A stretch of 64,000 nucleotides of DNA from Shigella phage ESh17. Below, piece after piece: positions 47,858-48,879 of the stretch. How positions within the stretch are numbered: position 1 is the stretch's first letter; each line of letters begins with the position of its first letter. Position numbers and translations under genes: made by a program. Below the pieces are notes generated by a model. The model did no database searches. It saw nothing but the letters and a program-made list of their open reading frames with translations, and was not told the DNA's origin. The stretch lies in the sequence record ON528727. One strand, given 5' to 3'.

Positions 47858-47930
47858 TGGGAATTAGCCAAGTTGGTAAGGCACTGGATTTTGATTCCAG
47901 GATGCAAAGGTTCGAGTCCTTTATTCCCAG
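47858..47930 (+). tRNA. tRNA-Gln (anticodon UUG)
   Basis: Cloverleaf by hand: acceptor TGGGAAT/ATTCCCA, anticodon loop TTTTGAT, T-arm GGTTCGAGTCC. Confidence 0.8.
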
Positions 47931-47931
47931 C

Positions 47932-48018
47932 GCGAGAATGGTCAAATTGGTAAAGGCACAGCACTTAAAATGCTGCGGAATGATTTCCTTGTGGGTTCGA
48001 GTCCCACTTCTCGCACCA
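47932..48018 (+). tRNA. tRNA-Leu (anticodon UAA), class II with long variable arm, encoded CCA
   Basis: Acceptor GCGAGAA/TTCTCGC, anticodon loop CTTAAAA, T-arm GGTTCGAGTCC. Confidence 0.8.
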
Positions 48019-48023
48019 AATTT

Positions 48024-48097
48024 GCGGATATCGTATAATGGCATTACCTCAGACTTCCAATCTGATGATGTGAGTTCGATTCTCATTATCCGCTCCA
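48024..48097 (+). tRNA. tRNA-Gly (anticodon UCC)
   Basis: Acceptor GCGGATA/TATCCGC, anticodon loop CTTCCAA, T-arm AGTTCGATTCT. Confidence 0.8.
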
Positions 48098-48107
48098 ATT
48101 TAATTTA

Positions 48108-48181
48108 CTCCGTGTAGCTCAGTTTGGTAGAGCGCCTGATTTGGGATCAGGAGGTCCAAGGTTCAAATCCTTGTATGGAGA
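48108..48181 (+). tRNA. tRNA-Pro (anticodon UGG)
   Basis: D-arm TAGCTCAGTTTGGTAGAGC, anticodon loop TTTGGGA, T-arm GGTTCAAATCC; acceptor with two G-U pairs. Confidence 0.7.
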
Positions 48182-48183
48182 CT

Positions 48184-48273
48184 GGAGGCGTGGCAGAGTG
48201 GTTTAATGCACCGGTCTTGAAAACCGGCAGTCGCTCCGGCGACTCATAGGTTCAAATCCTATCGCCTCCGCCA
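48184..48273 (+). tRNA. tRNA-Ser (anticodon UGA), class II
   Basis: Acceptor GGAGGCG/CGCCTCC, anticodon loop CTTGAAA, long variable arm, T-arm GGTTCAAATCC. Confidence 0.8.
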
Positions 48274-48279
48274 GTTTTT

Positions 48280-48355
48280 GCTGATTTAGCTCAGTAGGTA
48301 GAGCAACTCACTTGTAATGAGAAGGTCGGCGGTTCGATTCCGTCAATCAGCACCA
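48280..48355 (+). tRNA. tRNA-Thr (anticodon UGU)
   Basis: Acceptor GCTGATT/AATCAGC, anticodon loop CTTGTAA, T-arm GGTTCGATTCC. Confidence 0.8.
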
Positions 48356-48356
48356 A

Positions 48357-48431
48357 GGCCCTGTAGCTGGAAGGTTCAAGCAAGCGACTCATAATCGCCA
48401 GATGGTGGTTCAATTCCACCCAGGGCCACCA
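48357..48431 (+). tRNA. tRNA-Ile (anticodon CAU, presumably lysidine-modified; could be read as Met)
   Basis: Acceptor GGCCCTG/CAGGGCC, anticodon loop CTCATAA, T-arm GGTTCAATTCC. Confidence 0.65.
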
Positions 48432-48443
48432 AATTATGAATTA

Positions 48444-48530
48444 GGGGAGTTATCCCGTAGAGGTAGCGGTGTGGACTGTAAATCCATTGTCATTGCGACT
48501 CGGGTGGTTCGACTCCATCACTCCCCACCA
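48444..48530 (+). tRNA. tRNA-Tyr (anticodon GUA), class II
   Basis: Acceptor GGGGAGT/ACTCCCC, anticodon loop CTGTAAA, long variable arm, T-arm GGTTCGACTCC. Confidence 0.6.
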
Positions 48531-48534
48531 ATTT

Positions 48535-48609
48535 GGATGTGTAGCTCAGTGGTAGAGCAGTTGACTGTTAATCAATTGGTCCATGGTTCGAATCCATGCA
48601 TGTCCGCCA
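48535..48609 (+). tRNA. tRNA-Asn (anticodon GUU)
   Basis: D-arm TAGCTCAGTGGTAGAGC, anticodon loop CTGTTAA, T-arm GGTTCGAATCC. Confidence 0.7.
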
Positions 48610-48723
48610 AATTTGTGACAACTGTCACATTAATATCTACTTGACGCGATTATAAGGGTTGAACTGATCACTCTTCTCTTAATTTCGTGTGAAGACATCT
48701 TGATTGTTGGAGTAGGTATTAAT

Positions 48724-48799
48724 GTGGCCGTAGTTCAGTTGGTAGAACTCGAGATTGTGATTCTCGTAGTCATGGGTTCGACTCCCATCGGTCACCCCA
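48724..48799 (+). tRNA. tRNA-His (anticodon GUG)
   Basis: D-arm TAGTTCAGTTGGTAGAAC, anticodon loop TTGTGAT, T-arm GGTTCGACTCC, discriminator C; no encoded G-1. Confidence 0.65.
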
Positions 48800-48803
48800 A
48801 TTA

Positions 48804-48879
48804 CGGGGCATAGCTCAGAAGGAAGAGCAAGGACCTTCTAAGTCCTAGGTCGTAGGTTCGATCCCTACTGCCTCGACCA
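48804..48879 (+). tRNA. tRNA-Arg (anticodon UCU)
   Basis: Acceptor CGGGGCA/TGCCTCG, anticodon loop CTTCTAA, T-arm GGTTCGATCCC. Confidence 0.8.

Follow-up and report, generated by a model that had tools for sequence, protein, structure and literature searches.

A covarying three-way-junction RNA and a tRNA-His gene without an encoded G-1 in the eleven-gene tRNA cluster of Shigella phage ESh17

The tRNA cluster analyzed here has its closest described relatives in the T-even phages. T4 carries eight tRNA genes, none of them for Tyr, Asn or His, in the order Gln, Leu, Gly, Pro, Ser, Thr, Ile – segB – Arg, followed by rnaD and rnaC. The order is ...Ile, Tyr, Asn, Arg, rnaD, rnaC in RB7 and ...Thr, Ile, Tyr, segB in T6. 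According to Brok-Volchanskaya et al. (2008; PMC2330249), T4 can do without its tRNA region, T2L, RB1 and RB3 lack segB and carry Met(CAU), Tyr, Asn and Arg genes in its place, and the preferred cleavage site of SegB sits in tRNA-Asn. We examined the corresponding locus of Shigella phage ESh17 in a stretch of 64,000 nucleotides (nt) from sequence record ON528727 (hereafter the window), where the order is ...Ile, Tyr, Asn, spacer, His, Arg, an open reading frame (ORF) of 116 amino acids (aa), rnaD, rnaC and a terminator-like hairpin. A first-pass annotation of the window had placed three genes that T4 lacks (Tyr, Asn and His) between Ile and Arg, as the coordinates of the genes confirm, and this interval differs among T4, RB7, T6 and the window. 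The related layouts, together with the published data (PMC2330249), mark it as a recognized hot spot at which homing endonucleases drive exchange. Two of its components are the subject of this report, namely a structured RNA in the spacer between the Asn and His genes and a tRNA-His gene without an encoded G-1. They are modest leads, and the only parts of the cluster that merit follow-up.

The expanded set of eleven tRNA genes is already known, and the genes are real. ARAGORN, applied to the whole window, called exactly eleven tRNA genes, all on the + strand and spanning 47858-48879, and each of them reached the gathering score of Rfam RF00005 (29 bits), ten with 59-73 bits and Tyr with 30.2 bits. 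Both programs agree with the eleven anticodons assigned by hand folding in the first-pass annotation, including those of Tyr, Asn and His. Shigella phage SHBML-50-1, a Tequatrovirus, has a region 100% identical to this one; its GenBank record already lists the eleven tRNAs, Tyr as 'tRNA-Pseudo-GTA', and they are also annotated in about 190-250 relatives. At least 80% of the segment 47700-49300 is spanned by 254 phage records; the records listed among them are 95-98% identical to the window and have the same tRNAs annotated, as in a Tequatrovirus cluster of the T2/AR1 type, and counts of 11 tRNAs are routine in published Tequatrovirus papers. Taken as a whole, the locus is very probably best explained as the tRNA operon of a T2/AR1-type Tequatrovirus.

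The spacer between tRNA-Asn and tRNA-His is treated as empty by existing annotations. The first-pass annotation had described its length and a short palindrome (GTGACAACTGTCAC), both of which are present (Table 1), but had overlooked a conserved structured RNA that occupies the remainder. The whole spacer (48610-48723) folds at −33 kcal/mol (z = −4.55 against shuffles), and its relatives were found in 355 phage records: about 190-200 Tequatroviruses (197 records at ≥90% identity), Jiaodavirus (79% identity), Karamvirus (74-88%), Gelderlandvirus (78%) and four rV5-like phages of the Vequintavirinae, in which it lies between tRNA-Gly and tRNA-Gln. About half of the pattern matches in metagenomes were GC-rich chance matches and were discarded, and about 14 distinct copies were available in all. 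In an alignment of 12 of these, 93.2% of the cells were paired, compared with 37-49% when the partners were slid, eight pairs showed double changes, and the covariation score was reached by none of 500 shuffles. Overall, the paired share was 92-93%, against 35-50% in slid controls. With the diverged copies added, double changes were seen in 15 of the 30 pairs (2-6 in slid controls), in an alignment biased toward structure, as these copies had been found with a covariance model and fitted to it. This model (R1), made strand-specific by invariant G-U pairs, scored 116 bits on the strand of the tRNAs (+) and 17 bits on the − strand, and detected one copy per cluster. The element is therefore a real RNA that folds into a three-way junction, is specific to one strand and shows covariation.

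In T4-like phages the outer helix of this RNA ends exactly at position −1 of tRNA-His, and in Jiaodavirus it begins directly after the CCA of the upstream tRNA, which suggests that ordinary tRNA processing would free an RNA with paired ends. The palindrome that precedes the helix varies between phages: teqskov retains its stem with an altered loop, Karamvirus and Gelderlandvirus share no more of it than the 3' half (CUGUCAC), and Jiaodavirus lacks it. When the segment 48606-48803 was folded, the outer helix was preferably extended by five pairs, formed by GUCAC and positions +1 to +5 of tRNA-His, an extension that is predicted and lineage-specific. Three compensatory changes of pairs distinguish the outer stem of W70 (Vequintavirinae; L009, 1194-1292). 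The apical loop of the long hairpin (48656-48675) and the 7-nt loop of the small one (48698-48704) are complementary (UGAU/AUCA in copies with the hairpin of type A, UCAUGA/UCAUGA in copies of type B; equivalent positions in L006, L008, L015 and L019); a loop-loop kissing interaction of 4-5 base pairs (bp) in type A and 6 bp in type B, absent from the diverged copies L085 and L112, is weakly hinted at.

Searches with model R1 revealed no match at 49248-49507 or at T4 rnaC/rnaD, and no further copies in the window, in the remaining long spacers between tRNAs, or in T4, T6 and RB7. A comparison with Rfam 15 (E ≤ 10) returned only noise (best E-value 1.6, all scores far below the gathering scores), and a literature search found nothing relevant on structured RNAs in the tRNA spacers of T4-like phages. 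In the literature and the Rfam release searched, the element thus appears not to have been described previously. Several other identities were considered and rejected: (i) a self-cleaving ribozyme, of the hammerhead or another type (the strands at the junction measure 1, 3 and 1 nt, none of the conserved cores is present and Rfam gave no match), (ii) a decayed tRNA (wrong architecture, no ARAGORN call), (iii) a promoter (the sigma-70 scan was empty inside the cluster), and (iv) a gene for a 22-aa peptide on the minus strand (MSSHEIKRRVISSTLIIASSRY), which is not conserved.

The tRNA-His gene that follows the spacer also departs from expectation. The first-pass annotation had remarked that it lacks an encoded G-1, and alignment with E. 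coli hisR (80.3% identity) bears this out: the window gene reads A(-2)T(-1) followed by GTGGCCG, with C73 and CCA encoded, and hisR reads T(-2)G(-1) followed by GTGGCTA. The GUG anticodon and C73 of an E. coli-type tRNA-His are therefore present, while the encoded G-1:C73 pair with U-2 is not. We scanned IMG/VR by pattern for enterobacterial-type tRNA-His genes and found T at −1 in 24 of 24 T4-like copies, which derive from Tequatro-, Jiaoda-, Karam- and Gelderlandvirus and from two diverged contigs; 107 other matched genes, four of which lie in large viral tRNA arrays, have G at this position. One further gene (contig L144, 3624-3699), located in an array of 30 tRNAs and apparently not T4-like by sequence, has T at −1, and the loss of G-1 in phages may therefore have arisen more than once. 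Ten variants of the T4-like tRNA-His have an intact cloverleaf with compensatory changes at eight pairs and an invariant GUG and C73, and the gene is therefore under purifying selection as a tRNA.

Without G-1, charging of tRNA-His by E. coli histidyl-tRNA synthetase (HisRS) is predicted to be lowered more than 100-fold (Himeno 1989 and Connolly 2004, as cited in PMC5499578). The phage tRNA-His is probably charged poorly by the host HisRS and probably has a value beyond simple codon supply. Nothing on a phage tRNA-His lacking G-1 was found in our literature search, and a conserved form of this kind appears not to have been described in the publications covered. That a whole lineage of enterobacterial phages keeps, under selection, a tRNA-His without the principal identity element of the host HisRS raises the question of whether every phage tRNA serves translation.

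Codon demand separates His from the other tRNAs, as a comparison of the anticodons with codon usage (crude counts from 75 ORFs of the window, per 1000 codons) revealed. The eight T4-type tRNAs serve NNA codons throughout, and the window uses these 1.5 to 5 times as often as E. coli does (for example TTA, 30.7 vs. 13.9; GGA, 22.4 vs. 8.0; AGA, 11.3 vs. 2.1; ATA, 13.7 vs. 4.4). The codons for Tyr (43.7 vs. 28.4) and Asn (57.3 vs. 39.3) are about 1.5 times as frequent as in E. coli, in contrast to those for His, which are rarer than in the host (14.2 vs. 22.6). The conserved loss of G-1 also predicts poor charging; codon supply is unlikely to be the reason for carrying tRNA-His.

For the other two extra tRNAs a role against host defence comes into consideration. 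The window tRNA-Tyr is identical to that of RB7, matches T6 tRNA-Tyr in 85 of 87 positions, and is 95% identical to copies in unrelated rV5-like phages (nomine, slur12); it has the GUA anticodon, a 15-nt variable arm, A73 and CCA. Its D-stem is non-canonical, which explains the low Rfam score and the 'pseudo' flag, and the near-identity to the functional T6 tRNA-Tyr suggests that the window gene is functional and this flag a scoring artefact of the odd D-arm. Septu cleaves tRNA-Tyr in the variable arm; T6 expresses its own tRNA-Tyr, over-expression or amplification of which rescues infection, a T6 mutant without the tRNA-rich region is more sensitive to Septu, and T4, which has no tRNA-Tyr, cannot escape it (Chihara et al. 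2026, Nat Commun, PMC13096335). tRNA-Asn is a secondary target of the PARIS nuclease AriB (PMC12409363). The suggestion of the first-pass annotation that the extra tRNAs counteract tRNA-targeting defences is thus supported for Tyr, by analogy with the 98%-identical gene of T6. For Asn, whose codons are in high demand as well, it is plausible, and for His it is unsupported.

These elements can be combined in the following scheme. The eleven tRNAs, the embedded structured RNA, the small ORF and rnaD/rnaC would form one transcription unit ending at the hairpin at 49558-49581, whose transcript would then be processed by host RNases; the single unit is proposed on the basis of T4 biology and of the promoter and terminator scan, which gave no internal sigma-70 promoter-like or terminator-like site on the + strand of 47800-48900. 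The eight tRNAs shared with T4 would provide a classic supply for NNA codons. The extra genes lie in the Ile-Arg interval with its endonuclease-driven exchange, and Tyr and Asn most likely have a dual role, meeting the high Tyr and Asn codon demand of an AT-rich phage and buffering tRNA-cleaving defences, in that Tyr would counter Septu and retron-Eco7 and Asn, presumably, PARIS. RNase P cleavage at position +1 of tRNA-His and 3' trimming of the upstream tRNA would release a stable RNA of approx. 95-115 nt with paired ends, a functional analogue of the T4 species 1 and 2 RNAs, and the leader helix would also govern the maturation of the adjacent tRNA-His. Release of such a stable species and/or control of tRNA-His maturation is our best guess at the role of the spacer, one that we infer entirely. 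More broadly, we put forward as a tentative possibility that the three-way junction (approx. 95 nt) represents an undescribed class of non-coding RNA which travels with the G-1-less tRNA-His across the Tevenvirinae and occasionally into rV5-like phages, the pair either jointly controlling His maturation or serving, outside translation, as a decoy or regulator directed at a host factor that recognizes tRNA-His.

Some observations count against parts of this scheme. T6 tRNA-Tyr is itself cut by Septu, and rescue was seen only when it was over-expressed (PMC13096335). The window tRNA-Asn, read from its sequence, carries the optimal AriB motif U36-A-A-U-C/A41 and is therefore not obviously resistant to cleavage. 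The structured RNA survives without tRNA-His in teqskov and in contig L024 and precedes tRNA-Gln in W70, so that its role may not be tied strictly to His.

Other explanations of the extra genes have to be weighed against this scheme. It is unlikely, in our view, that tRNA-His and its structured leader act purely as an anti-defence decoy, uncharged or poorly charged and perhaps still fused to the leader, which would soak up a factor recognizing anticodon loops of the GUN/queuosine family. Colicin E5 reportedly targets the Tyr, His, Asn and Asp tRNAs, and the three extra tRNAs, all with GUN anticodons, match three of these four targets of E5-type nucleases; the fourth, Asp (GUC), is not in the cluster. 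A phage demand for His codons below that of the host and the systematic absence of G-1 from an otherwise conserved tRNA would fit such a decoy, but phage and host have identical anticodon loops in their Tyr, Asn and His tRNAs, with no signature of resistance, and Tyr and Asn can be explained by codon demand alone. We know of no defence system that primarily depletes tRNA-His. Minor cleavage products of tRNA-His are nevertheless generated by AriB, and the authors of that study also suggest that some viral tRNAs act otherwise than by translation rescue (PMC12409363). We consider it more improbable still that the extra tRNAs are low-benefit passengers, spread by homing-endonuclease gene conversion and recombination between tRNA genes, with His and Tyr in decay. 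Retention of the Tyr-Asn-spacer-His block in 186 records is difficult to reconcile with decay, as are the compensatory changes that maintain the His cloverleaf in at least four genera and the close similarity of Tyr to the copies in RB7, T6 (where it is functional) and the rV5-like phages. What speaks for passengers is the great variability of the interval among close relatives (segB, Tyr with segB, Tyr with Asn, Tyr with Asn and His, endonuclease insertions), the Thr/Asn chimera and missing His of teqskov, the dispensability of the T4 region (PMC2330249), the GenBank label of Tyr as a pseudogene and the lack of a major HisRS identity element in His.

With respect to the spacer, the conservation might stem from the DNA itself or from coding (a promoter, a palindrome bound by a protein or the minus-strand ORF of 22 codons) and not from an RNA fold. 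In the distal 9 bp of the outer stem (AUYAAUAUU/AAUAUURAU) the sequence is in fact conserved along with the pairing, and the short ORF is readable in the window copy. W70, however, has this ORF in a shortened and altered form and variants with the type-B hairpin have lost it, no sigma-70-like promoter was called in the spacer, and neither the excess of double compensatory changes over slid controls nor the strand specificity conferred by the G-U pairs is expected of such a feature, which makes this explanation highly improbable. A strand-specific RNA fold is the reading that we retain.

Table 1. Features of the tRNA cluster and its surroundings in the window
Feature	Coordinates	Strand	Basis and remarks
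tRNA-Gln-UUG	47858-47931	+	ARAGORN, Rfam; 89% identity to T4
tRNA-Leu-UAA	47932-48018	+	ARAGORN, Rfam; 100% identity to T4
tRNA-Gly-UCC	48024-48097	+	ARAGORN, Rfam; 98.6% identity to T4
tRNA-Pro-UGG	48108-48182	+	ARAGORN, Rfam; 100% identity to T4
tRNA-Ser-UGA	48184-48273	+	ARAGORN, Rfam; 100% identity to T4
tRNA-Thr-UGU	48280-48355	+	ARAGORN, Rfam; 96% identity to T4
tRNA CAU (Ile2-type)	48357-48431	+	ARAGORN, Rfam; allele other than that of T4, no blastn match
tRNA-Tyr-GUA, class II	48444-48530	+	ARAGORN, Rfam (30.2 bits); extra relative to T4
tRNA-Asn-GUU	48535-48609	+	ARAGORN, Rfam (72.6 bits); extra relative to T4
Asn-His spacer, 114 nt	48610-48723	+	Read from sequence
Small hairpin/palindrome GTGACAACTGTCAC (GUGAC-AACU-GUCAC)	48615-48628	+	Sequence and predicted fold
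Three-way-junction RNA element, approx. 95 nt	48629-48723	+	RNAalifold, pair counts, covariance model
Outer stem, 14 bp	48629-48642 with 48710-48723	+	RNAalifold
Long variable hairpin	48644-48690	+	RNAalifold
Small hairpin, 4 bp, 7-nt loop	48694-48708	+	RNAalifold
tRNA-His-GUG	48724-48799	+	ARAGORN, Rfam (65.1 bits); extra relative to T4
tRNA-Arg-UCU, RB7/T2L-type allele	48804-48879	+	ARAGORN, Rfam (66.1 bits)
rnaD (T4 species 2 RNA) homologue	49248-49362	+	99.1% identity to annotated T4 rnaD
rnaC (T4 species 1 RNA) homologue	49369-49507	+	98.6% identity to annotated T4 rnaC
Terminator-like hairpin after rnaC	49558-49581		Terminator scan

The first seven tRNA genes (47858 to 48431) keep the T4 order, Gln, Leu, Gly, Pro, Ser, Thr and CAU. 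ARAGORN named the last of these 'Met'. Among 5,413 E. coli genomes, the sequence that it matches best over its whole length is an annotated tRNA-Ile (81.6%), and its body has C4:G69 and C5:G68 (read from the sequence), typical of tRNA-Ile2, the lysidine-modified type that reads AUA, and not of a Met elongator or initiator; it is therefore better labelled Ile(CAU), the assignment made in the first-pass annotation. Directly upstream of tRNA-Gln, a MotA-box-like TTGCTTGA followed by TAATAAT (47828-47857) lies in a stretch nearly identical to T4 and would fit a middle promoter of the T4 type driving the tRNA operon; no call was made at this site by the sigma-70 scan. Neither the rnaC nor the rnaD homologue reached any Rfam gathering score.

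Two ORFs that do not occur in the T4 and RB7 layouts accompany the cluster, one of 116 aa (48898-49248, phrog_3355) between tRNA-Arg and rnaD and one of 157 aa (49632-50105, phrog_2280) after rnaC; neither has a Pfam match. For the six ORFs flanking the cluster, Pfam gave nothing and PHROGs only families of unknown function, and among these six no gene for a Thg1-like or other tRNA enzyme was found.

Rearrangements of the Ile-Arg interval were observed in several relatives. In teqskov (L010, 1129-1330) a deletion has taken Ile and Tyr and left a chimeric tRNA composed of a Thr 5' half and an Asn 3' half; tRNA-His is also gone, and the structured spacer RNA is kept upstream of a different tRNA-Arg allele. 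In Enterobacter phage CW742 (L008, 1301-2043) a homing-endonuclease gene is inserted beside tRNA-His, whose encoded CCA is gone (..CACCTTT). In record PP526941 an 'endonuclease' likewise lies next to tRNA-His, inserted in an otherwise identical 11-tRNA Tequatrovirus cluster.

A comparison with the known systems places the cluster as follows. It shares with T4 the genomic position, strand logic and gene order, six tRNAs being 89-100% and rnaD/rnaC approx. 99% identical. It differs in the absence of segB, in the alleles of Ile(CAU) and Arg(UCU), neither of which has a blastn match to T4, and in the addition of Tyr, Asn, the structured spacer, His and the 116-aa ORF. With T2L, RB1, RB3 and RB7 (10 tRNAs) it has in common the series Ile(CAU)-Tyr-Asn-Arg without segB, and besides the identical Tyr its Arg is nearly identical to that of RB7 (two mismatches), but the tRNA-Asn allele is not the same and an additional 190-nt module (structured RNA and tRNA-His) separates Asn from Arg. 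This module is common to the window lineage and to Klebsiella and Enterobacter T4-like phages (the block of spacer and His is 87% identical to that of the Klebsiella phages), and the presence of the RNA element and of a 95%-identical Tyr in rV5-like phages, which are unrelated to T4, indicates that modules of tRNA clusters have been transferred between phage families. The Ile-Arg interval of T-even phages is thus a swap site for homing endonucleases and anti-defence tRNAs, which the window shows in its fullest state, with eleven genes.

The anti-defence tRNAs of T6 and T5, the latter of which act against retron-Eco7 and PARIS (PMC11555353, PMC12409363), share with the window the concept that phage tRNAs replace isoacceptors destroyed by defence nucleases. 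Unlike in T6, there is no segB beside Tyr in the window, so that amplification driven by SegB is unavailable in cis, and, unlike the T5 variants, the window Asn and His have no obvious resistance substitutions in the anticodon loop. The tRNA-His of alpha-proteobacteria (Wang, Sobral & Williams 2007; PMC3064791) likewise lacks an encoded G-1. It has, however, A73 and a co-evolved HisRS, whereas the phage tRNA keeps C73 and must rely on a canonical enterobacterial HisRS that depends on G-1:C73.

The nearest parallel to the spacer RNA is found in rnaC and rnaD of T4, which are also small, structured, non-tRNA RNAs within a tRNA transcription unit, bounded by tRNA processing sites. They have no sequence or structure homology to the spacer RNA, which is distinguished by its three-way junction with a 14-bp closing stem and by its position 5' of tRNA-His; beside these two long-unexplained RNAs, it would be a third stable-RNA-like element.

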